A stretch of 33,010 nucleotides of DNA, taken from an uncultured Bacilli bacterium. Lineage in GTDB: Bacteria > Bacillota_I > Bacilli_A > RF39 > UBA660. Below are positions 8,586 to 31,556 of the stretch, piece by piece. The translations under genes were made by a program, and so were the position numbers. The notes under the pieces were generated by a model that made no database searches, was not told the origin of the DNA, and was given only the letters and a program-made list of their open reading frames with translations. The stretch lies in contig CAKORH010000001.1 of assembly GCA_934101235.1 (NCBI GenBank), positions 1-33,010 on the forward strand, in the 5' to 3' direction. Positions within the stretch are counted from its first letter, which is position 1. Every line of letters begins with the position of its first letter.

Positions 8586-9581
8586 TCATTTAGTAAATTT
8601 TTTAGCTTTGACTAGATCTAGGTCACTATTTTCATATGATTTTAAGTATTGCCTTAAAAAATATAATTTATCTAAATTATTTGAAAATATCATATCACAA
8701 AATTCTAATGCTTCTGATAAATATATTTCATTATAAAGATTATATTTTATATCTTGAAGTTTATTTTTTCTATAATTAATAATATCATTATCAATTTCAT
8801 TATTTTTTGAAGATAATAATAATTTAACAAAAAAATTTATATTATTTTGCCATATTATAGGATTTAATGTTCCATTAGGACATCTAAATTCTATAGTATT
8901 ATTTAGATTAATATTACTTGCATCATATGCATTATATAAATTTACGGCTTGGTGTCTTTCATAAGATATTCTTTTAATAATATCTCTTACCTCTATTTCT
9001 TTTTCTTCCATTAAACTTTTATAATCACACCAAAAATATTTTGATACAGGAAAAGCATATTTAAGAATACTAGGACGTGCTGTTAAATATTCTCCATAAG
9101 AAAATCTAAAAATAATATTTTCATATACTGACCATAATTTGATAAAATTTAGCCATGATTCTATGTTGTCACCTAAAACTTGTGTACCTATATGAATATG
9201 TCCTCCAGAATGTGGACCTATAATTGCATTCTTTTTAATTGCTAAACATATTTTTTTCAAATCATTCCATGAATTTGGTACATCAGTTAAAACTGGAGAA
9301 TTTATTTCTCCACCATTTCTCAATGATCCATCAGCTTTTGTTATCCAATCAAATGTTTTTATATTTGATAATTCTTTTGTTATTTTTTCTTTGTTAGCAT
9401 TTTCATATTCGATTTCTATACCACATGTTACAGATTTATCAAGGTTTAATGATTCTCTAAGTTCTAGATAATAAGTATCTAAATAAAATATTAAATCTTG
9501 TAATTCTTTCCCATTCATTTTCGATAAAATATCATTATTTTTAGGATTAATATAATTAAATAATTCATTATTTTTCATCAT
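8586..9581 (-). CDS. putative amidoligase (glutamine-synthetase-fold, Amidoligase_2-like)
   Basis: Four ordered motifs: CGIEIEYE (ExE), GGEINSPVL, HSGGHIHIG and TIEFRCPNGT. These match the metal- and ATP-binding strands of the GS-like amidoligase family as I recall it. A GAGG RBS overlaps the stop of the upstream gene. Confidence 0.7.
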   Translation of the reverse strand: MMKNNELFNYINPKNNDILSKMNGKELQDLIFYLDTYYLELRESLNLDKSVTCGIEIEYENANKEKITKELSNIKTFDWITKADGSLRNGGEINSPVLTDVPNSWNDLKKICLAIKKNAIIGPHSGGHIHIGTQVLGDNIESWLNFIKLWSVYENIIFRFSYGEYLTARPSILKYAFPVSKYFWCDYKSLMEEKEIEVRDIIKRISYERHQAVNLYNAYDASNINLNNTIEFRCPNGTLNPIIWQNNINFFVKLLLSSKNNEIDNDIINYRKNKLQDIKYNLYNEIYLSEALEFCDMIFSNNLDKLYFLRQYLKSYENSDLDLVKAKKFTK

Positions 9582-9585
9582 AAAT

Positions 9586-10422
9586 TTACCTCGTTAATCT
9601 ATTATAATTATCTTTCTTTATTTCTAATTTTTTTGTAATATAATCAACATCTATAGGTTTATATTGTTCATTTAAATCTGCAACACTTCTCCTATAATTA
9701 AATGAAGAAACATTTTTTCTATAATATGATGGTATAATTTCAGAAATATAAATAACTATAAAATATAGAAATAAAAGCACAAGATCATCTCCATCTTGTT
9801 TTTTATATGTAACATATTCAAATTCATCTTTATTTTTATTAAATATAATTGTTTTAAAAGATGGCTTATTTGTTAATTCATTATTTATATTATTTTTTGT
9901 TTCAGTTATAGTCGAATCTGGATTTTCTAATAATTGTTTTAAATTATCATTATCATAATCTTTTGTATTAAATAATTCTATTAACTGGTTATATGATTTA
10001 TTACTCATATTATATTCTTTCACAATTCTACTATATGTACCATTATTATTTAGTTTCCATTCAGAGTAGTAATAAATTCTATTTACAGCATTTTTAAATT
10101 TTCCATATTTTTCTTCATATCTTATATTTCCATTACTATCAGTTTCAGTCATAGTATTTTTATATTTTTTAATACTTATATTATCATTCATAAATGGTAG
10201 TCCACATACTGAAAATAATTTACTTGATGCTATTGAAGCAGTTAAAATATATGGAGCTATTTGATGTATTTTTTTAACGCTTATTTTCAAATTTTTTATG
10301 ATTTTATTTTTGCTGTTAACTTTTTCAGGATATTTTTTTGCGTTTTCTAAATATTTTATTTCTTTTTTTAAATTTTTTAACATCTTTTTTTGTTTAATTA
10401 CTTTTAATCTATTTTGTAACAT
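9586..10422 (-). CDS. hypothetical lysine-rich protein with two hydrophobic (TM-like) segments
   Basis: Basic, coiled N-terminus (LQNRLKVIKQKKMLKNLKKEIKYLENAKK). Hydrophobic segments are IAPYILTASIASSKLFSVCGLPF and LVLLFLYFIVIYISEIIPSYY. Start placed at the ATG at 10422 after AAGGGGGA. The track start at 10461 lies inside the predicted -10 box. Confidence 0.6.
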   Translation of the reverse strand: MLQNRLKVIKQKKMLKNLKKEIKYLENAKKYPEKVNSKNKIIKNLKISVKKIHQIAPYILTASIASSKLFSVCGLPFMNDNISIKKYKNTMTETDSNGNIRYEEKYGKFKNAVNRIYYYSEWKLNNNGTYSRIVKEYNMSNKSYNQLIELFNTKDYDNDNLKQLLENPDSTITETKNNINNELTNKPSFKTIIFNKNKDEFEYVTYKKQDGDDLVLLFLYFIVIYISEIIPSYYRKNVSSFNYRRSVADLNEQYKPIDVDYITKKLEIKKDNYNRLTR

Positions 10423-10451
10423 TTTAACTTTATCCCCCTTTAAGACAACAT

Positions 10452-10480
10452 ATATTATCATACTTTTTATATTTCTTCAA
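10452..10480 (-). promoter_or_regulatory. promoter of the two-gene amidoligase cassette
   Basis: Minus strand: TTGAAG-17 nt-TAATAT with an upstream TGn extension (-35 at 10480..10475, TGA at 10460..10458, -10 at 10457..10452). Confidence 0.55.
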
Positions 10481-10775: not shown

Positions 10776-11201
10776 ATGTTAGTTAGTTATACAGCGAGAG
10801 AATTAGATTTAGTAGCACGATTAATGAGAGCTGAAGCCATAGGCGAAGGAAATTTAGGGATGCTGATGGTTGGTAATGTTATTGTAAATCGTGCTATAGC
10901 AACTTGTGATGTTTTTAAAAATATACGTACACTTTATGATGTTGTGTATCAAAATCCTGGAGGATTTAGTGGAGTTAATTCATCACTATTCTATTCATCA
11001 AGTACAACTTTGGAAAAAAATTTAGCAAAAAGAGTGATTACTGGAGAATACTACCATCCAGCAACACACTCTTTATGGTTCTATGCACCTGGAACTGGTA
11101 ACAATTGTAAAAGTGACTTTTATGGTCAACCATTAGCAGGTAGATATAAAAATCATTGTTTTTATAAACCAGAAGAAGGTGTATGTAAAGAATTATATTA
11201 A
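10776..11201 (+). CDS. cwlJ: spore cortex-lytic cell-wall hydrolase, CwlJ/SleB catalytic-domain family
   Basis: 141 aa with DL.ARLMRAEA.GEG..GML.VGNV..NR ... LWFY.P ... YK.HCFY, matching the Hydrolase_2 domain. Size and end-to-end layout resemble B. subtilis CwlJ. AGGTGA lies 4 nt before the ATG. Confidence 0.8.
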   Translation: MLVSYTARELDLVARLMRAEAIGEGNLGMLMVGNVIVNRAIATCDVFKNIRTLYDVVYQNPGGFSGVNSSLFYSSSTTLEKNLAKRVITGEYYHPATHSLWFYAPGTGNNCKSDFYGQPLAGRYKNHCFYKPEEGVCKELY

Positions 11202-16664: not shown

Positions 16665-17498
16665 TTATTTCATTTCTATTTTTTCTTGATAATATTTTTC
16701 TTTTTCTAATTCTTTTAACGATTTTTTAGGTGTTGGTAATTTTTCTGGCATTGTTCCACCATTTTTAGCAATTACCTCTCTAATGTTTTTTCCAATATTA
16801 TAATGTGTTTCGTTGGCATCTTTTTCACTAGATATATTATCTCTTTTTAATTTTGATTCAGTTTGAGTTATACGGAAAAGGTTGGCTGCTAATTCTTCAC
16901 TTCCCATATTATCTAAAATTTCTTCACGATATCTTAAATTTTTTCTTTTAGCAATATCATTAGCAGTTTCACCATTATATAATCCTTTATATCCCGCATT
17001 ATGAAATTTATCAAAATTTTTAACTCCACACTTTTTAGCGACTTGATTTAAAGAATAATTTCCTTTTTTAGTTAAACTTCTTTGATAAAATCTTTTTTCA
17101 TCTTCAGTTAACATAGAATATTCTTTTTCAGTTAGTTCCTGTTTTCTAGTTTGTATTGCAAAATAAGTTTGTCCTAAAGCAACAACTTCTTTTCTAGGAT
17201 CTGAATTTTGTACTATCAAATAACAAGCATATCTTGATAACTTATAATCTACAATACTTCTTGAAGTTTTAGAACCTATATCAACCATTTTACCCACTTG
17301 GGTAAAATGGTCATCAATTATAAATTTACTTTGTTCACAAGCCGTTTTTGCATTTTCTATTACATTTATAAACTTTTGCCACTTTTTATAATCTAAAGCA
17401 ATTTGCAATTCTCTAGCTAACCAATACTCACTACCATATTCATCAATGTGTTTAATATCTTCAAATACTGTTTTATTATATTCTTTAATTTCGTTCAT
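16665..17498 (-). CDS. dinD: DNA-damage-inducible protein D homologue (DinD)
   Basis: 277 aa, colinear with E. coli DinD as I recall it: W.AREL...L.Y, IDDHF, LSRYACYLIVQN.DP, GQTYFAIQTR.QEL, MGSEELAANLFR.TQTE.KLKRD, GGTMPE.LPTP. Strong AGGAGGTAA RBS. Confidence 0.85.
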   Translation of the reverse strand: MNEIKEYNKTVFEDIKHIDEYGSEYWLARELQIALDYKKWQKFINVIENAKTACEQSKFIIDDHFTQVGKMVDIGSKTSRSIVDYKLSRYACYLIVQNSDPRKEVVALGQTYFAIQTRKQELTEKEYSMLTEDEKRFYQRSLTKKGNYSLNQVAKKCGVKNFDKFHNAGYKGLYNGETANDIAKRKNLRYREEILDNMGSEELAANLFRITQTESKLKRDNISSEKDANETHYNIGKNIREVIAKNGGTMPEKLPTPKKSLKELEKEKYYQEKIEMK

Positions 17499-17560
17499 AC
17501 ATTACCTCCTGTTCTTTTGTGTTCATTAGTATAGAAAAAGTCCATATTTATCATTTTATA

Positions 17561-17749
17561 TTATATTCTTATTGTTTTCTTTGAATCTAACATAGATTTT
17601 GTTAATGATAATGTTGATGTCATTGTTTTATTATTCCAATTATATAATAACATATATTTATTTTCTTTAACCCACTTAATAGCAATATTCTTATTTTTTT
17701 CTGGAATATTACCAACCAATACTTTAAAATCTATAAAGATATTGATATT
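17561..17749 (-). pseudogene. fragment resembling the C-terminal half of a DUF4160-type protein
   Basis: The open frame translates to NINIFIDFKVLVGNIPEKNKNIAIKWVKENKYMLLYNWNN.... The G.lP.k....i.W......L...W pattern fits. There is no start codon and no N-terminal half. Confidence 0.25.
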
Positions 17750-18230
17750 TCATATAATTCAAATATCTTTCTAACAACTTCAGCTGCAATAAAGTCAATT
17801 ATTAATTTGTGTCCATCTTCTCGTTTGTTTTTAAATGATCTTTTTATATTTACTGATAAATCATCTAAAAACCATTCGTTCATAAAACCATTTATTTGTC
17901 TTGATTTTTTATCAGATTCAATACTTGTATCTGCATTATCAACAATACTTATAAATCTAACTTTCCATTCAATAATTTCCATATTTCTTTAATATCTTGA
18001 TTGACTTTTGCATAAAACTAAATTACTCTATTAAAATCAGGGCAATTAACTTTAGCTTTTGAAAAATCATCAGAGTATATATCTACAAAATTCCAACCAA
18101 ATTGACACGCATATTTTAAACACATACTTCTTTGATTTATTATACTATCACTATTATCATTTTTATTTACCTTATCTCTATCTTCATCAGATAATCTACA
18201 ATATACACCTACCTTTACTATTATAGCCAT
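17731..18230 (-). pseudogene. decayed large serine recombinase (two fragments with internal deletions; C-terminal domains absent)
   Basis: Fragment 1 (18018..18230) reads VGVYCRLSDEDRDK...SDSIINQRSM...GW..VDIYSDD, the resolvase N-terminus with the catalytic Ser context. Fragment 2 (17731..17982) reads VRFISIVDNADT...KKSRQINGFMNEWFLDDLS.NIK...KLIID..AAEVVRKIF. About 35 aa are missing between them, and the recombinase and zinc-ribbon domains are gone. Confidence 0.65.
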
Positions 18231-23110: not shown

Positions 23111-23142
23111 ACATAAAAAAGAAAAGAGATTTACTATCTCTT
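23111..23142 (-). terminator. rho-independent terminator of the bacteriocin operon
   Basis: 7-bp stem AAGAGAT/ATCTCTT (23124..23130 and 23136..23142) with a 5-nt loop. TTTCTTTTTTAT follows on the minus strand. The stem overlaps the TAA of peptide B. Confidence 0.65.
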
Positions 23143-23290
23143 AACAACTTCTTCCATTAATAAAGTAATTTAATGCACTACCTATATTTCTACCAATATT
23201 TAGTACTACATTAAATAGTCTTGCAACTGAATTTATTAATGATGCATTTATTCCACCACCATAAATTTTCATCAATTCATTATTACTCAT
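23141..23290 (-). CDS. double-glycine-leader bacteriocin precursor, peptide B (49 aa; not in the ORF track)
   Basis: My translation: MSNNELMKIYGG|GINASLINSVARLFNVVLNIGRNIGSALNYFINGRSC*. The leader has L at -7, I at -4 and GG at -2/-1. The mature part is cationic with a GRNIG (GxxxG) motif. Its ATG overlaps the TGA of peptide A (ATGA). Confidence 0.75.
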   Translation of the reverse strand: MSNNELMKIYGGGINASLINSVARLFNVVLNIGRNIGSALNYFINGRSC

Positions 23291-23433
23291 GCATTACACG
23301 TAAGAGGTCTTAAATAGCCATCTATAATTCCTACAAATAGAGTTCCTAATGCACTTAATATTATACCAAGTCCCCATTTTTTAAAAGAGGCTCCTCCCTT
23401 TATATTAATTAGTGTTTCTTTATTTAGTACCAT
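23287..23433 (-). CDS. double-glycine-leader bacteriocin precursor, peptide A (48 aa; not in the ORF track)
   Basis: My translation: MVLNKETLINIKGG|ASFKKWGLGIILSALGTLFVGIIDGYLRPLTCNA*. The leader has L at -12, L at -7, I at -4 and GG. The mature part is hydrophobic and cationic with GIIDG (GxxxG). AAAGGAG lies 5 nt upstream, within the last codons of the ABC gene. Confidence 0.75.
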   Translation of the reverse strand: MVLNKETLINIKGGASFKKWGLGIILSALGTLFVGIIDGYLRPLTCNA

Positions 23434-23435
23434 CT

Positions 23436-25415
23436 TTACTCCTTTCTTAAAGTTAATTGTTTAGGAAAAATACAACTTAAATCTTTATGACTAATATAAA
23501 TAATAGTTTTATTTTTATAATATTTTAAAATACTTTTGACAATATCAATTTCCAAATTATAATCTACTTCTTTTAATACTTCATCAAGTATAACAATATT
23601 TTTTGAATGTATTAAACTTCTTGCAAGAATTATTCTATTAATTTCACCACCACTTAAACTATAATTATTAATTATATATGAATTAAGTCCAAAATTTCTA
23701 TTATTTAATATTTCATTTATATGACATATAGATAATACTTTGTTTAGATATTTATCGTCTATATTTTTATCTAAGACAATATTATTAAGTATTGTATCAT
23801 CAAATAACATTTCATTTTGAGATACATAACTAATAAGGTTATCGTTATTTTTATTTTTTAAATTTATATTATCTTTTAGTATTAATCCTTTATAATTATT
23901 AATTTCAGAATAGATTATTTTCATTAAAGTACTTTTTCCACTTCCTGAAGGGCCATTAATATATATTTTATCTTTATTTAATATAGTATAGTTTATATTA
24001 TTTAATACTTTATTATCGTTTATTTTATAATTGATATTATTTATATTTATAATATTAAATTTTTTATTAACTATTGGAAGTTTATCTTTTTTATATGATA
24101 AAAAGTCATTATTTTTAATAATCATTGTTTTATATAATATAAGTGTTGGATATAAATTAATTATTTCACTTATTAAATTAATTAAGTAATTATATATTAT
24201 AAATATGGTTATGCTATTTGTAATACTATAATCATTTAATTTAATAAGTATTAATATAATTACTAGGAACAAATTTTTTAATATCTCATTGAATAATATA
24301 ATCTTTGATATATTTGTATTTAAATCTAAATTAATATTATTTTTATTGTTAATACTTTCTTTTATTTTTAAATAAATATAATTATAGCATTTTAAATGTT
24401 TTATAGTTTCTATATTTTTTATATAATTTATTATTTCATTATTATAATTTTCACTAATATTAATTTGATATCGTATTTTATAAATTATTTTTTTATAAGT
24501 TTTTATATTAATGAATGTATAAATTATTATAAAAATTATTAAGTAAGGGGTTATATTTTTATAGAGTAACGAAATTAAAAATATTATTATAATTTGAATT
24601 ATATTAAAAAATATTGTTACTATGTAGTTTAAAATATTATTACTTATTTCATTAAGTTCATTAAATCTTGTAGTTATTTCTCCTAAACTTTTTAACTTTA
24701 TATAATTTGAAGGAAGTTTAAAAATATGATTTATAAATTTTAATATTATATTTTTATTAAATGAATTAGATATTTTTAATATTATTATATTTTTTATAAT
24801 TGTGAATATAAAATTAATTAGTATTAATAAAATAATTATTATTGCATAATTTACATTATAATCTATTATTTTATATTCTAAATTGTTTATTATTGAACAG
24901 ATTAAACAAATAAAATTTAATATTAAAATTAAAATATATTTTTTATAATTAATTTTAATATTTTCTATAATAGAATTCCAAAAAAATTTATTTTTCTTAT
25001 ATTTAGGAATTACATTTATAGGTTCAAAATATAATACAATACCTGTAAATAATTCATAGAATAAATCAAGTGTCATTTTTTTCTTGCCTATACTTGGATC
25101 CATTAAGTAAATATATTTGTCATTTATTTTATAGGCAACTGTAAAGTGATATAGATTATTTTTTTGTTTTAAATGAACAATAATTGGTTTATTGATTTCA
25201 TTTATATATGATACTTTTTTTCCATATGAATTAAAACCGTATTTTTTTGCACAATTGATAAGTTCGTATGCATTTGTTCCATTAATACTTGTATTAGTAT
25301 TTATTCTTAGATTTTCAAGAGGAACAAAGCCATTATAATACTTAATAATACATTCTAATGAACAAATTCCACAGTCACTTACTTCTTCTTGCAATACTTC
25401 ATAAATCTTATTCAT
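23436..25415 (-). CDS. bacteriocin-processing ABC exporter with N-terminal C39 cysteine peptidase domain
   Basis: C39 motifs QEEVSDCGICSL (Q and catalytic C) and HFTVAY...IYLMDP (H/D). Multi-TM core. Walker A GPSGSGKST, signature LSGGEINR, Walker B IVILDE, H-loop ISHK. Start set at the ATG at 25415 after GAAGGGAG; the track start is 25478. Confidence 0.88.
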   Translation of the reverse strand: MNKIYEVLQEEVSDCGICSLECIIKYYNGFVPLENLRINTNTSINGTNAYELINCAKKYGFNSYGKKVSYINEINKPIIVHLKQKNNLYHFTVAYKINDKYIYLMDPSIGKKKMTLDLFYELFTGIVLYFEPINVIPKYKKNKFFWNSIIENIKINYKKYILILILNFICLICSIINNLEYKIIDYNVNYAIIIILLILINFIFTIIKNIIILKISNSFNKNIILKFINHIFKLPSNYIKLKSLGEITTRFNELNEISNNILNYIVTIFFNIIQIIIIFLISLLYKNITPYLIIFIIIYTFINIKTYKKIIYKIRYQINISENYNNEIINYIKNIETIKHLKCYNYIYLKIKESINNKNNINLDLNTNISKIILFNEILKNLFLVIILILIKLNDYSITNSITIFIIYNYLINLISEIINLYPTLILYKTMIIKNNDFLSYKKDKLPIVNKKFNIININNINYKINDNKVLNNINYTILNKDKIYINGPSGSGKSTLMKIIYSEINNYKGLILKDNINLKNKNNDNLISYVSQNEMLFDDTILNNIVLDKNIDDKYLNKVLSICHINEILNNRNFGLNSYIINNYSLSGGEINRIILARSLIHSKNIVILDEVLKEVDYNLEIDIVKSILKYYKNKTIIYISHKDLSCIFPKQLTLRKE

Positions 25416-25503
25416 AATTTTACTCCCTTCACTATAAATTATTATCATTTTTTTTGCATTTCCTTTTTTTTCTTGCAATTTTTTTAAAAAAAGTTAAAAA
25501 AAA

Positions 25504-26388: not shown

Positions 26389-27294
26389 TTAAGATATTGA
26401 AATATCTAAATTTAAATCAGTATTATTTAACTCTAAATTCATATTTATTGTCTTAATAGTATCATCTACATTAATAGTATTATCAACTATAGAATTTGTT
26501 TGAGTCCTATTAATTAAAAACTCATTTGATCCTTTAGTAGTAATTGTATCATTATTTTTATTTTTTAATCTTATTTCATATTTATTTGGGTCTATACCTA
26601 CAAATTTATATGAATTATTTTTTATATTACTTGTTTTTATTTCGTTAGTTACTGTATTTACTAATTCTACATAATCATTATCACTACTACCAGTTATAGT
26701 ACCTATTAAATCATATACATTAGTACTATCATATATTTGTATTTTTGTTTCTAGTTTTTTATTCATATCTATACTTTGATTAGTATCTAATATATTATCG
26801 TATGTAACAGTCAAAGTATAATTATGTCTTAAACCTGGAGCAATACTATTGGTTATAATTAGTGAATTAGTTAATGGAAAAACTTTATTATCAAAACCAT
26901 TACAATCTCTTATTGTTTCATCAGTTTCATCATTTACTTCAACACAAACTAACTTCACTTTTATGTCATCTGGTCTATCAAATTCATTTATTACATTTTC
27001 TAAATATACACCATATGCATCAATTATTTCATCACCTTTATTTGTTACGGTAAATGTTTTTGAATCAATCAAATCTCCAGGAACTATTAATTTATCTGGC
27101 TTAATAGTACCATTACCATCTCCATATATTAATTTTAAGTCTGCTGTTTTAATTTTTATTGATTTATCATTGGTATTACCTTTTATTCTTGTTAGAAAAT
27201 ATGCATAAGTAATCCCAAGTAATGTTAATACTAGTAATATTATAGCAATTACACTTACTATTATTCTTGTTTTTCTGTCCATAGTTCCAGTCAT
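26389..27294 (-). CDS. secreted TasA/camelysin-like protein with SipW-type signal peptide and C-terminal Ig-like domain
   Basis: N-terminal TM segment followed by TYAYF (like the (T/S)xAYF(S/T) SipW-type junction). Next come IKTADLKL and VPGD....TFTV.N.G, typical of the TasA/M73 beta-sandwich. The C-terminus has YKFVGIDPNKYEIRL, a CarboxypepD_reg-like strand pair. Confidence 0.5.
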   Translation of the reverse strand: MTGTMDRKTRIIVSVIAIILLVLTLLGITYAYFLTRIKGNTNDKSIKIKTADLKLIYGDGNGTIKPDKLIVPGDLIDSKTFTVTNKGDEIIDAYGVYLENVINEFDRPDDIKVKLVCVEVNDETDETIRDCNGFDNKVFPLTNSLIITNSIAPGLRHNYTLTVTYDNILDTNQSIDMNKKLETKIQIYDSTNVYDLIGTITGSSDNDYVELVNTVTNEIKTSNIKNNSYKFVGIDPNKYEIRLKNKNNDTITTKGSNEFLINRTQTNSIVDNTINVDDTIKTINMNLELNNTDLNLDISIS

Positions 27295-27384: not shown

Positions 27385-29358
27385 TTAAGCATCTTTTTTA
27401 AATTGTGAATTGTATAAATCTGCATAAAAACCATTTAATTTCATTAATGATTTATGGGTACCTTGTTCTATAATGTTTCCTTCATTCATTACTAAAATTA
27501 TATCTGCGTTTTTTATTGTAGATAATCTATGTGCAATTATAAATGAAGTTTTTCCTTCAGTTAATTTATCCATTGCTTTTTGAACTAATTCTTCAGTTCT
27601 TGTATCAACATTACTTGTTGCTTCATCAAGTATCAAGAATGGTGCATTTTCTATCATACCTCTTGCAATAGTTAAAAGTTGTTTTTGTCCACTACTTATA
27701 GAGTCATTATTACCAACACTTGCATCAATTCCATTAGGTAAAGTTTTTATAAAATGGTCTATTCCAACATATTTGCAAACATCCATAATTTCTTCATCTG
27801 TAATATTAGTTTTATTGAATTTTAAGTTTTCTTTTACTGTGCCATCAAATAACCATGTATCTTGCAAAACCATTACAAATAGATCATGAATATTTTCTCT
27901 AGTTAAATCATGGATTGATACACCATCTATTAATATATCTCCACTATTTATTTCATAAAATTTCATAAGTAAATTAACAAGTGTAGTTTTTCCAGCTCCT
28001 GTTGGACCAACTATCGCAACTTTTTCACCAGGTTTTACTTTAACACTAAAATCTTTTATTATTGTTCTACTTTCATCATAGCCAAATTTTACATTTTTAA
28101 ATTCTATTGCACCTTTAACTTTAGTTTTATCTAATTTTCCTTTTAATTTACTTTCGTCTGTCATTTCATTTTCTTCTAAAAATTCAAATACTCTTTCACT
28201 TGCTGCTACAGTTGATTGTAAACTAGTCATTGCTTGTGCTATTTGTGATAATGGATTAGTGAATAATCTTACGTAAATCATGAACGCAACTATTACACCA
28301 AATGTTATATGATTATTAGATACTAAAAGTGCTCCTACTATACATACAGCTACATAACCTAAGTTACCAACAAAACTCATTATAGGTGGCATAAGTCCAG
28401 AATAAAATGAACTTTTTCTATTATACTCATATAAATTTTTATTTAATTTTCCAAAATCTTTATCTGCATCTTTTTCTCCATTATATGCTTTTACTACATT
28501 GTGCCCTTTATATATTTCTTCAATATATCCATTTAAGTTACCTAATTCTGTTTGTCTCTTTGTAAAGTATACTTGGCTCTTTTTTAATATTAGGGCCATA
28601 ATTAAGAAACCTAATAAACTTGATAATATTGCAGTAATAGCCATTACCCAGTTTGTAATAAACATCATGATAATTGAACCAATAAATAGTGTTAAACTAC
28701 TAACTAATGTAGCAAAACTATTATTCATATTTTGAGCAATTGTGTCTACATCATTTGTTACTCTTGATAATATATCTCCTGTCTCATGAGTATCAAAATA
28801 TTTTAATGGTAATTTATTTATCTTTTTAGATATGTTTGTTCTTAATTTTTTAGCAAAATTATTTGATATATTTGTCATTAATAAAGATTCTATATAATTA
28901 AATAATGCACTTATTAAATATATTATTGTTAAAAATAATGCAATACTTTTAACTTTTGTCATATTAATAACTGGTTTTATTTTGTTGTATATTGATTTTG
29001 GTAATGAATCCATTTCTTTTAATAATTTTTTTGTATCAATATCTTTATTATCTTTTACACTTTCAATGATAGATGAAAATTGTTGTTTATCTTCTTTACT
29101 TATTGTTTCATCATTAAATATTTCCATTACTTTTTTTTCATTTATTTTTGGTGTAATACCAGCAGTTATAGTATCTGTTAAATCTGATAATTTATTAGGA
29201 GATATTAGAGCTAAGATTGCACTAGTCATTGCTAATATTAATGATATTATTAACATATATTTCCATGGATTTAAATGTTTAAGTAATTTTTTCATTGAAC
29301 CAGAGAAATCTTTTGAGGTTTCTGGTACTCCTTTATTTGGTCCCATATGTCTAGGCAT
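27385..29358 (-). CDS. ABC exporter half-transporter (permease + ATPase), multidrug type, subunit 2
   Basis: 657 aa with a six-TM ABC_membrane domain. Walker A GPTGAGKTT, signature SSGQKQLL, Walker B FLILDEATS, H-loop IAHRL. It overlaps the upstream paralogue by 8 nt (YheI/YheH- or LmrCD-like pair). Confidence 0.9.
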   Translation of the reverse strand: MPRHMGPNKGVPETSKDFSGSMKKLLKHLNPWKYMLIISLILAMTSAILALISPNKLSDLTDTITAGITPKINEKKVMEIFNDETISKEDKQQFSSIIESVKDNKDIDTKKLLKEMDSLPKSIYNKIKPVINMTKVKSIALFLTIIYLISALFNYIESLLMTNISNNFAKKLRTNISKKINKLPLKYFDTHETGDILSRVTNDVDTIAQNMNNSFATLVSSLTLFIGSIIMMFITNWVMAITAILSSLLGFLIMALILKKSQVYFTKRQTELGNLNGYIEEIYKGHNVVKAYNGEKDADKDFGKLNKNLYEYNRKSSFYSGLMPPIMSFVGNLGYVAVCIVGALLVSNNHITFGVIVAFMIYVRLFTNPLSQIAQAMTSLQSTVAASERVFEFLEENEMTDESKLKGKLDKTKVKGAIEFKNVKFGYDESRTIIKDFSVKVKPGEKVAIVGPTGAGKTTLVNLLMKFYEINSGDILIDGVSIHDLTRENIHDLFVMVLQDTWLFDGTVKENLKFNKTNITDEEIMDVCKYVGIDHFIKTLPNGIDASVGNNDSISSGQKQLLTIARGMIENAPFLILDEATSNVDTRTEELVQKAMDKLTEGKTSFIIAHRLSTIKNADIILVMNEGNIIEQGTHKSLMKLNGFYADLYNSQFKKDA

Positions 29359-31114
29359 TATCTAACTCCTCCTTTCCTAATTGAGATAGAGCAATTTCTT
29401 TATATACTTTACATTTTTTTAGTAATTCTTTATGTGTTCCAATTCCTACGCATTTTCCTTTTTCTAAAACTACTATTTTATCTGCATTAATAATTGTTCC
29501 TATTCTTTGCGCTACTATCATGTTTGTTGCGTCACTTGTATATTTTTTTAATTCTTGTCTTAATAAGAAGTCTGTCTTATAATCAAGTGCTGAAAATGAA
29601 TCATCAAATATATATATTTCTGGCTTTCTTGCTATTGCTCTTGCTATTGCTAATCTTTGTTTTTGTCCACCTGAAATATTTGTTCCACCTGATGCAATAT
29701 GAGAATCATATTTTTTATCCATTTTTTCAACAAAATCAGTTCCTTGAGCAACATTAATAGATTTTTTTATTTCTTCTAATGAAGGCGTTTTTTTACCATT
29801 GTTTCCGTATGTTACATTTGATTTTACTGTACCTGTAAACATTACAGCTTTTTGAGGTATATAACCTATTTTATTATGTAATGTTTCTAATTTATAATCT
29901 TTAACATTTACTCCATCAACTAATATTTCACCTTCTGTTGCATCATAGAATCTAGGTACTAAATTTATTAAAGTACTTTTACCACTTCCTGTAGAACCTA
30001 TAAATGCTATAGTTTCGCCTTTGTTAACTTTAAATGATATATTTTCTAGTAAGTATTCATCAGCATCAGGATATTTAAATGATACATTTTTAAATTCGAC
30101 AGTACCAACTAAATCATTATTAACTTTTTCTAAGTTTCCATCTTTAATTGAGATGTCACTTTCTAAAACTTCGTTTATTCTTTTTGCTGACACACTTGCT
30201 CTAGGCCATATCATAAATATCATTGCAAGCATTAAGAATGATGCAATAACTTGCATTCCGTAACTAGAAAATACTACCATATTACTAAATAAATTTATTT
30301 TATCTAACATACCAGATTTATTTATTAATATTGCTCCAATAAAATATATACCTAATGTTAGAAAATGCATTACTAAATTCATAATTGGATTAAGTATTGC
30401 AAAGCATCTTTGATTAAATAATTGATTTTTTGTTAAATCATTATTAACTTTATCAAATCTATTTTCTTCAAATTTTTCTGCATTAAATGCACGTACAACT
30501 CTTATACCACTTAAATTTTCTTCGGTTACTCCATTAACTTTATCTATTAATTTTTGTACAATTTCAAACCTTGGAAATACAATTACTAAAAGTATTCCTA
30601 TAGTAATTAATAAAATTAATACACATACACCAGTTAAAATACTCCATTCAAGAGATTTATTAACTATTTTAGTAATAGCCCATACTGCCATTATTGGTGC
30701 TTTAATTAACATTTGTAATCCTACCGCAATTAACATTTCCAATTGAGTAATATCATTCGTTGTTCTAGTAATTAAACTACTAACTTTAAATTTTTTTATT
30801 TCTGCAGTACTTAAGTTTAATACTTTTTTAAATACTTTTTCTCTTAAATTATAAGAGAAATTTGCAGATAATAAACTTGCCAAATAACCTACTACTACGG
30901 CAGATAATAAACTACCAAATGCACATAATAGCATATATCCACCTTTACTTAATATTTCTAATATTTTAGTATCTTCACTTTGTATAAGAGCAGTAATAGA
31001 ACTCATATAATCTGGTAATTTTAAATCTAGGTATACTTGTAATGTAATCATTAAAATACTAATTAATATTAACATTAAGTCTTTTTTTGTGAAATTTTTA
31101 AATATTTTTATCAT
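29351..31114 (-). CDS. ABC exporter half-transporter (permease + ATPase), multidrug type, subunit 1
   Basis: 587 aa. Walker A GSTGSGKST, signature SGGQKQRLAIARA, Walker B IYIFDDSFSALD (D replaces the catalytic E, typical of the degenerate site in heterodimeric exporters). Confidence 0.9.
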   Translation of the reverse strand: MIKIFKNFTKKDLMLILISILMITLQVYLDLKLPDYMSSITALIQSEDTKILEILSKGGYMLLCAFGSLLSAVVVGYLASLLSANFSYNLREKVFKKVLNLSTAEIKKFKVSSLITRTTNDITQLEMLIAVGLQMLIKAPIMAVWAITKIVNKSLEWSILTGVCVLILLITIGILLVIVFPRFEIVQKLIDKVNGVTEENLSGIRVVRAFNAEKFEENRFDKVNNDLTKNQLFNQRCFAILNPIMNLVMHFLTLGIYFIGAILINKSGMLDKINLFSNMVVFSSYGMQVIASFLMLAMIFMIWPRASVSAKRINEVLESDISIKDGNLEKVNNDLVGTVEFKNVSFKYPDADEYLLENISFKVNKGETIAFIGSTGSGKSTLINLVPRFYDATEGEILVDGVNVKDYKLETLHNKIGYIPQKAVMFTGTVKSNVTYGNNGKKTPSLEEIKKSINVAQGTDFVEKMDKKYDSHIASGGTNISGGQKQRLAIARAIARKPEIYIFDDSFSALDYKTDFLLRQELKKYTSDATNMIVAQRIGTIINADKIVVLEKGKCVGIGTHKELLKKCKVYKEIALSQLGKEELDNA

Positions 31115-31556
31115 AATCTTTTCCTTTCAATTCAATTATATTATCTTTTACTTTATAAAAAACATTAATAAGAGTATCAATACTTTCTTTACTTATATTT
31201 TTTCTTAATGTGTTTAAGTAACTAGTTTCTACTTTATTAAGTTCTTTAACTATATCTTTAGCACTATCATTAACTATAACTTTTTGTTTTCTTTTATCAT
31301 TTTCATCTACACATACAGTAATTAATTTTTTATCTACTAATTGGTTTATAGCTTTAGATACATAGGCTTTAGATACATTTGAAAGACAAACAACATCTTT
31401 TGCGTTAATCACGTTTGGATTATTAGAAAATATTAATAACATATCAGCTTCTCTAAATGATAAATTATATTTTTTACTCACACTTAATATTTTCATATTA
31501 TGTTCTTCTATAATAAGTCTAGATATTTTTAATACTTCTAAAATATTATCATTCAT
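31098..31556 (-). CDS. MarR-family transcriptional regulator
   Basis: 152 aa with a winged-HTH layout (...S...VS.LI.QLV.K.LI.......D.R...V.....A). It overlaps the first ABC gene by 17 nt. AGGAGGCA RBS. Confidence 0.8.
   Translation of the reverse strand: MNDNILEVLKISRLIIEEHNMKILSVSKKYNLSFREADMLLIFSNNPNVINAKDVVCLSNVSKAYVSKAINQLVDKKLITVCVDENDKRKQKVIVNDSAKDIVKELNKVETSYLNTLRKNISKESIDTLINVFYKVKDNIIELKGKDYDKNI

Follow-up and report, generated by a model that had tools for sequence, protein, structure and literature searches.

The stretch of DNA considered here, called the window, covers positions 1 to 33,010 of contig CAKORH010000001.1 (assembly GCA_934101235.1), 33,010 nucleotides from an uncultured Bacilli bacterium. 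Its minus strand carries, between 23141 and 25478, a cassette of three tightly packed open reading frames (ORFs): an ATP-binding cassette (ABC) exporter with a C39 peptidase domain and two small genes, pepA and pepB, which encode candidate two-peptide bacteriocin precursors with double-glycine (GG) leaders. The features of the cassette are the following.

23436..25478, minus strand: exporter, a peptidase-containing ABC transporter (PCAT/AMS type); the longest ORF has 680 aa, from a TTG at 25478
25020..25400, minus strand: C39 cysteine-peptidase domain of the exporter, residues ~27-153 of the 680-aa ORF
23439..23445, minus strand: Shine-Dalgarno sequence of pepA, AAAGGAG, by direct reading, within the exporter's last codons (..R-K-E-stop)
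23287..23433, minus strand: pepA precursor, 48 aa; leader MVLNKETLINIKGG, mature part ASFKKWGLGIILSALGTLFVGIIDGYLRPLTCNA
23392..23433, minus strand: double-glycine leader of pepA, 14 aa
23290..23391, minus strand: mature pepA peptide, 34 aa
23141..23290, minus strand: pepB precursor, 49 aa; leader MSNNELMKIYGG, mature part GINASLINSVARLFNVVLNIGRNIGSALNYFINGRSC
23255..23290, minus strand: double-glycine leader of pepB, 12 aa
23144..23254, minus strand: mature pepB peptide, 37 aa
23115..23142, minus strand: candidate weak intrinsic terminator, with the stem AAGAGAU/AUCUCUU, a 5-nt loop and then UUCUUUUUU

The two small ORFs lie exactly where a preliminary description of the window had placed them, and with the same translations. 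The AAAGGAG that it had named as the ribosome-binding site of pepA is formed by the exporter's last codons (aag gag) and stands 5 nt before the pepA ATG, with the exporter TAA in between, and the ATG of pepB overlaps the TGA of pepA on the same strand in the sequence ATGA, as had been described. There is no separate Shine-Dalgarno sequence upstream of pepB and, together with the start/stop overlap, this means that translation of pepB is probably coupled to that of pepA. In exporters that are 35–54% identical to that of the window the gene still ends in ..RKE/GKE-stop, so that the aaggag is retained as well.

The evidence that pepA and pepB are genuine coding genes under selection comes from closely related loci and from the wide recurrence of the pair. 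The same locus is carried by a metagenome-assembled genome from the Hadza gut, also labelled ‘uncultured Bacilli bacterium’ (locus L004), whose exporter is 94% identical to that of the window and differs from it by 47 synonymous and 49 non-synonymous changes. In the same comparison pepA is 100% identical at the protein level with 4 synonymous differences, and pepB shows 6 synonymous and 0 non-synonymous differences. By our own estimate, which assumes random changes over the counted sites, the probability that all 10 peptide differences would be synonymous by chance is ~3e-7. Other close pairs of metagenome loci give a peptide omega (dN/dS) of ~0–0.04; the ratio was restricted to close pairs, as divergent ungapped pairs are unreliable (median 0.48, likely through misalignment or saturation).

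Word-index protein searches with the window peptides returned three relatives of pepA and one of pepB, all unnamed, and a metagenome scan built from a 4-sequence pepA alignment, with only the leader back-translated, gave 0 loci. When 1.84 billion proteins were searched exhaustively with a pepA profile, 106 cluster representatives scored at E<=1e-3, nearly all of them 43–50 aa in length. A DNA search with a degenerate pattern that encodes G(I/V)(I/V)DG(Y/F)xRPxxC added 120 metagenome loci, drawn from assemblies of the human gut and of other metagenomes. Contigs that carry exporter homologues repeatedly show the exporter, an ORF of ~47 aa and then one of ~50 aa. When genes were counted over all loci with hidden Markov models (HMMs) and BLAST, 124 true pepA genes were obtained from genomes and metagenomes together. 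In 114 of these pepB follows immediately downstream, with a gap of −37 to +26 nt; among the 10 others, nine pepA genes have a contig end no more than ~170 nt away; in the tenth (L040) a B-like ORF overlapped pepA by too much to enter the count. Hence every locus with room on its contig (114/114) has A then B, and A alone or B alone is never seen where the contig allows for both. The spacing is likewise conserved, either as a start/stop overlap or as 10–17 nt. A C39-ABC exporter lies upstream on the same strand in 106 of the 124 loci, most of the others being at contig ends, so that over 100 independent loci share the arrangement of A, B and exporter. The genes pepA and pepB form an obligate pair, probably coupled in translation.

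The peptides themselves have the properties that had been ascribed to them. Residues −4, −7 and −12 of the leaders are hydrophobic in both cases (I, L and L in pepA; I, L and M in pepB), the GxxxG motifs are GIIDG in pepA and GRNIG in pepB, where the context is ..IGRNIGSAL.., and both mature peptides are cationic, with net charges of +2 for pepA and +3 for pepB. The pepA peptide of the window is hydrophobic and resembles a transmembrane (TM) segment, with a mean Kyte-Doolittle hydropathy of 1.97 and a tail, DGYLRPLxCN, that holds its single Cys. The pepB peptide is an amphipathic helix with a hydrophobic moment of up to 0.67 and a C-terminal Cys. An AlphaFold2 model of pepB places a leader helix at residues 4–10 and a mature helix at residues 16–45, with a predicted local distance difference test score (pLDDT) above 90 over residues 21–40; the model of pepA is also helical, at low confidence (pLDDT 68).

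These features extend across both families, as judged from 106 unique pepA and 97 unique pepB sequences. The pepA pattern is a leader of the form M.L..EEL..I.GG, ~20 hydrophobic residues and then F(I/L)xGx(I/V)DG(Y/F)xRPLxCN, and the pepB pattern is a leader ending in GG, an amphipathic helix with an invariant GxxxG and a basic tail ending in Cys. The GG at the cleavage site is present in 97/106 pepA and 96/97 pepB sequences, and GxxxG, in invariant alignment columns, in 106/106 and 94/97. The mature peptide has one Cys and no more in 99/106 pepA and 93/97 pepB sequences, the Cys always lying within the last 8 residues, and the median net charge is +2 for pepA and +4 for pepB. The leader consensus of both families is I/V at −4, L/M at −7 and L/I/M at −12. 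When mutual information was calculated, columns flanking the pepA GxxxG were found to co-vary with a column inside the pepB GxxxG (z ~4.8, a value confounded by phylogeny), which is suggestive only as support for pairing. Leader positions −7, −10 and −5 also co-vary between pepA and pepB (z ~5 over 100 unique pairs, with phylogeny uncontrolled), which could reflect co-adaptation to a single C39 domain, gene conversion or common descent.

The exporter matches the Pfam families Peptidase_C39 (2.1e-29), ABC_membrane (6.8e-14) and ABC_tran (9.3e-20) above their thresholds, and its best relatives of solved structure, ComA (8hf4, 5e-51) and PCAT1 (4ry2, 2.5e-49), align with it from end to end. Residues Q30, C36, H111 and D127, in the numbering of the 680-aa ORF, align with Q11, C17, H96 and D112 of ComA, which we take to be its catalytic residues. 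The protein therefore has what defines a PCAT, namely a C39 domain, a transmembrane domain (TMD) and a nucleotide-binding domain (NBD) in one polypeptide together with the catalytic set. Among 62 full-length exporters that adjoin A/B pairs, the Q is found in 56, the C in 57, the H in all 62 and the D in 60, the few alignment gaps at these positions being attributed to the calling of ORF starts, and no variation is seen in the Walker A and B motifs, the signature motif or the H-loop. The true start of the window exporter is probably the ATG at 25415, which gives 659 aa, rather than the upstream TTG at 25478, because homologues begin at the equivalent of M22 and a ribosome-binding site, GAAGGGAG, precedes it. 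Measured from this ATG the spacer to murB is ~88 nt, and that between pepB and cca at the other end of the cassette is ~104 nt. The exporter falls well below the NCBIfam cut-offs of TIGR01193 and TIGR03796. Its transmembrane part (window 24000–25000) has a G+C content of ~11%, about half that of its surroundings (~20–23%).

A hairpin terminator after pepB had also been proposed, and here the outcome was mixed. There is a 7-bp AT-rich stem followed by a U-run, but the structure is not significant against shuffled sequences and was not called by a terminator scan. The stem has 2 G-C pairs and a stability of about −5.5 kcal/mol, and the consensus scan is silent at the pepB 3′ end because just two of its pairs are G-C. 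A hairpin and U-run of different sequence stand directly after the pepB stop in 8/15 related loci, and the element of the window is probably a real but weak terminator that closes the exporter-pepA-pepB unit. A promoter scan was uninformative in this AT-rich DNA, with 51 matches against 46 expected. In several loci of the window's architecture (type 1, in which the cassette is exporter-A-B alone), namely L085, L016, L060, L136 and L099, the pepB stop is ~45 nt from the cca start and there is no terminator. In the first four of these a motif, TTCACAAA / TTACAAA, lies ~12–13 nt upstream of GATATA(C/A)T in a promoter-like arrangement; TTCACAAA is also present in L121. The boundaries of the operon thus vary among lineages.

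The genomic setting of the cassette is stable. The window shares with L010 and L012, whose exporters are 50–54% identical, a position between murB and cca-dnaD-nth-nusB-xseA-xseB, whilst in L016, L017 and other loci (exporter 32–39% identical) the cassette lies between spoIIIAH-gerE-gerM and cca-dnaD-nth, so that synteny with cca-dnaD-nth persists down to ~32–35% exporter identity. For L016 the identities to the window are 35% for the exporter, 50% for A, 42% for B, 44% for cca, 48% for dnaD and 55% for nth. The divergence of the cassette therefore tracks that of the flanking housekeeping genes, which points to long vertical co-inheritance.

A second architecture, type 2, is found in loci that include Candidatus Coprovivens (L014) and L015. 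It consists of the exporter, a single-TM protein of ~140 aa, A, B and usually a further protein, C, and is typically followed by rpsU and yqeY. The ~140-aa protein is encoded between the exporter and pepA (L014:7040-7456, L015:2315-2734 and L075:6576-7016 on the minus strand; 47 loci by HMM), and neither it nor protein C has a Pfam match. The ~140-aa protein may be a compact accessory factor, with no relation to the HlyD-like accessory proteins that serve classical class II systems. Protein C has 50–58 aa and no GG leader, and combines an N-terminal TM helix with a B-like segment, ..FxxGNxVGTFIR....C. Its gene overlaps the end of pepB, as in L036:2512-2661(-), L123:6596-6772(+), L095:1619-1795(-) and ~30 other metagenome loci. 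A profile of protein C detects type-1 pepB peptides (1.7e-5 for L016), which indicates that C is a membrane-anchored paralogue of pepB, and it is proposed as a candidate immunity protein that would mimic pepB. With C as the putative immunity protein and the ~140-aa protein as the putative accessory factor, type 2 would have the five functions of the lactococcin G operon, and such immunity and accessory genes would have been lost from, or be absent in, the lineage of the window. In one lineage a third GG-leader peptide (leader MSNEELMSVHGG, mature part RLSITISYSYNSVMGYLYTLGRRIGTYFNRLFH), with a GxxxG and no Cys, is encoded after pepB (L031:2927-3064(-), L083, L086, L098 and L113).

The cassette can be compared with known systems. 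The class IIb model TIGR03949 (lactobin A/cerein 7B family) matches 44/59 pepA-family members at E<=0.01, several of them above its cut-off of 21.5 bits, and the pepA relatives P0148, P0144 and P0135 score 35.4, 30.6 and 28.5 bits. A part of the pepA family would therefore already be annotated automatically as class IIb. In seven members the match stops at residue 33–38, which leaves the C-terminal motif that defines the family largely outside it. PF10439 (Bacteriocin_IIc) matches 27/59 pepA relatives at E<=0.01, the best at 1.3e-5, and the lactococcin G-beta model NF038034 matches 31/59 over its positions 1–37 of 38, with a best score of 36.4 against a cut-off of 37 bits. The TIGR03949 and PF10439 families share with pepA a leader followed by a Gly-rich, hydrophobic N-terminal half, and have no counterpart of pepB. 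A search against the sequences of solved structures found leader similarity alone, to CtA (LTDEELMEMTGG), the substrate of PCAT1, and no two-peptide bacteriocin structure. By these matches pepA lies on the fringe of the recognised class IIb peptides, and its partner pepB represents a new family. The kind of system, a GG-leader peptide pair with a PCAT exporter, is well known, whereas this pepA/pepB family was previously unnamed: no public source gives a name to either peptide or to a homologue, in keeping with the preliminary description, which had recognised neither, and a literature search gave no match to the pepA motif strings.

The closest parallel is the lactococcin G / enterocin 1071 type, which likewise has two adjacent peptide genes, GG leaders, a dedicated C39-ABC exporter and a GxxxG in each peptide. 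The KKW start and hydrophobic stretch of pepA resemble lactococcin G-beta, and the amphipathic pepB with its cationic C-terminal end resembles lactococcin G-alpha. The order here is exporter, beta-like peptide and alpha-like peptide, and the mature sequences are unrelated past the leader and the first ~20 residues. In contrast to the lagA-lagB-lagC-lagD-lagE operon of lactococcin G, the cassette of the window has no immunity or accessory gene. Further differences are the single conserved C-terminal Cys of each peptide, the invariant DG(Y/F)xRPLxCN tail of pepA and the core-chromosomal location of the cassette, in uncultured Bacilli of gut and rumen. The exporter has the same C39-TMD-NBD order as PCAT1 of Clostridium thermocellum and ComA of Streptococcus pneumoniae, with which its catalytic residues align, and PCAT1 likewise works without an HlyD-like accessory protein. 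The substrates differ, being two short helical peptides here as opposed to the ~90-aa CtA for PCAT1 or the competence pheromone CSP for ComA. A further likeness of the exporter is to NF045998, the Mbov_0121 family of mycoplasmas, which it matches over nearly its full length (1.1e-61) with 209 bits against a cut-off of 500, which places it outside the family. Mycoplasmas are part of this broad radiation of low-GC Bacilli; a literature search on Mbov_0121 gave nothing relevant.

Taken together, these observations favour reading exporter-pepA-pepB as a class IIb-type two-peptide bacteriocin cassette with predicted leader cleavage and antibacterial activity, to which we assign a probability of about 0.6. 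The peptides would then be a new family of paired, bacteriocin-like peptides of uncultured gut and rumen Bacilli that probably act on membranes. The three genes would be expressed as one unit and the precursors translated in a fixed ratio, since the ribosome-binding site of pepA lies within the 3′ end of the exporter gene and pepB is coupled to pepA through ATGA. The amphipathic GG leaders, with their hydrophobic residues at −4, −7 and −12, are expected to dock in the C39 domain of the exporter, which would cut after the Gly-Gly, and the ABC exporter would expel the unmodified 34- and 37-aa peptides. Outside the cell the pepA and pepB helices are thought to pack through their GxxxG motifs into a membrane-inserting pair that would permeabilise related bacteria, probably through a membrane-protein receptor. 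Lactococcin G and enterocin C have UppP/BacA as their receptor (PMC12765074). The single C-terminal Cys of each peptide may additionally link the two. A literature search turned up no two-peptide bacteriocin with a disulfide between its chains, and an unmodified one in which a Cys link between the chains is obligatory is not known to us.

How well the cassette fits class IIb can be judged against a review of the class (PMC2850506), according to which the preforms carry a leader of the double-glycine type, 15–30 aa in length, that is removed by a dedicated peptidase-domain ABC transporter, and an immunity gene invariably accompanies both peptide genes in their operon. In the window the peptide genes are adjacent, both precursors have GG leaders, the dedicated exporter has its C39 catalytic set intact, and both peptides contain a GxxxG; the pepB leader is just 12 aa. 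The class IIb identity given in the preliminary description is thus partly upheld, by the leaders, the exporter, the pairing, the GxxxG motifs and the cationic helices, but not with respect to immunity.

A number of results count against a bacteriocin, and the immunity question is foremost. No third ORF is present between the exporter and the terminator, and no homologue of the immunity candidate C or of the accessory protein was found anywhere in the 33-kb window, although the immunity gene of this type could be unlinked. Moreover, the cassette behaves like a core gene rather than as part of a variable bacteriocin island, and the plasmid and phage collections that were searched hold no copy of it. 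The comparison of both peptides with curated libraries gave a divided answer: whilst some pepA relatives pass TIGR03949, the peptides of the window are below every threshold. The window pepA has no TIGR03949 match at E<=1 and scores 15.8 bits on PF10439 (E = 0.014) against a threshold of 27.1, and the window pepB reaches 16.2 and 16.7 bits on NF038034 and on the lactococcin G-alpha model NF038035, through its leader only, against a cut-off of 37. Nor do pepB relatives match known Pfam or NCBIfam families beyond the leader.

Several of these points would be explained if the peptides were a conserved, non-antagonistic exported pair, serving the producer itself, either in signalling or as a factor of its membrane or envelope, for instance in sporulation or cell-envelope physiology. 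Such a role fits the vertical inheritance and deep synteny among housekeeping genes, the position of type 2 beside rpsU-yqeY, the want of a linked immunity gene in the window type and of plasmid or phage copies, and the fact that between close relatives the peptides change only synonymously when the exporter also gains non-synonymous changes. The substrates of PCATs, moreover, include communication peptides as well as toxins, as one account states (PMC7018657). Against this, neither the loci with listed genes nor the recurrent neighbours include a histidine kinase, response regulator or other receptor gene linked to the cassette. Type 2 also encodes a membrane protein that looks like an immunity protein, and the pepA family has profile similarity to class IIb bacteriocin models. 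Helices of 34–37 aa that carry GxxxG motifs, one TM-like and one amphipathic, are also typical of membrane-active bacteriocins and not of pheromones. We consider a non-antagonistic role unlikely, though it is the main rival. A more specific proposal, which we regard as speculative and decidedly unlikely, is that the cassette is an ancient, vertically inherited core module of an entire lineage of uncultured, spore-forming Bacilli of gut and rumen, whose products form a disulfide-linked or otherwise Cys-dependent heterodimeric membrane peptide. In window-type lineages, which have no immunity or accessory gene, this peptide would have a conserved physiological or kin-directed role, such as control of the envelope, of sporulation or of germination, or the recognition of self, and would not serve bacteriocin warfare. 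Pheromones with a linked two-component system were rejected, as none is present in the loci with listed called genes, and so were precursors of lantibiotics or other ribosomally synthesised and post-translationally modified peptides, since no genes for modifying enzymes lie nearby.

Streptococcal loci such as blp and rtg often string several independent GG peptides behind one PCAT, and each peptide here has its own leader, so the two might be independent one-peptide bacteriocins (class IId-like) that share an exporter and form no complementary pair. The fixed order of A then B, their strict co-occurrence and their conserved overlap or spacing are difficult to reconcile with this, as are the complementary physico-chemistry of A and B, the presence of one conserved GxxxG and one conserved Cys in each, and the co-variation of columns next to both GxxxG motifs; this explanation is accordingly held to be very improbable. 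That the ORFs arose by chance in AT-rich DNA, or are decaying remnants behind an orphan exporter, could be argued from a genome of ~20–25% G+C in which short ORFs are common and from the failure of curated models to detect the window peptides. Conservation effectively refutes this, with 10 synonymous and 0 non-synonymous differences from L004, over 100 loci that keep both frames, the leaders and the motifs, and the 106 cluster representatives that match the pepA profile, and its probability is negligible. The class IIb-type reading is therefore retained in preference to these alternatives.

Elsewhere in the window, 26389–27294 (minus strand) encodes a 301-aa protein, conserved in L004 and without a Pfam or NCBIfam match, whose N-terminal TM or signal segment ends in ..LLGITYAYFLTR; its YAYF-type segment may resemble SipW-dependent (TasA/camelysin-like) signal peptides. 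At 27385–31556 (minus strand) a pair of ABC exporter genes (657 and 587 aa) overlap each other and probably encode a heterodimeric exporter of the multidrug type. A 152-aa ORF, MarR-like by eye, precedes them and overlaps the first, and no link between this pair and the peptide cassette was found. Mobile-element remnants occupy 16665–18230 (minus strand), comprising a Bro-N domain protein (16665..17498) and fragments at 17731..17982 and 18018..18230, the latter of which matches a resolvase N-terminal domain and is thus probably a broken serine recombinase. An Amidoligase_2-family protein is encoded at 8586..9581, a 291-aa protein without a Pfam match at 9586..10461 and a SleB-like cell-wall hydrolase (Pfam Hydrolase_2) at 10776..11201. 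This hydrolase, together with spoIIIAH, gerM and a spoIIGA-like gene (Peptidase_U4) in related loci, suggests a spore-forming lineage.

What sets the family apart is the one invariant Cys of each peptide, the deep vertical synteny and the missing immunity and accessory genes in the lineage of the window. A stable housekeeping position over such deep divergence is unusual for bacteriocins and makes one ask what allows a toxin-like pair to persist when no immunity gene is linked to it. The two architectures, one with candidate accessory and immunity genes and that of the window with neither, amount to a natural experiment on this point. The sequence rules of the family are testable: both peptides have a GG leader, a single GxxxG and a single C-terminal Cys, and pepA has the DG(Y/F)xRPLxCN tail. 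The peptides are also short, unmodified and easily synthesised. To our knowledge, no antagonistic or signalling molecules have been described for the uncultured low-GC Bacilli of these communities. If the peptides are active, they would represent a large, hitherto unnamed two-peptide bacteriocin-like family, with more than 100 distinct pairs, in human gut, rumen and digester communities.

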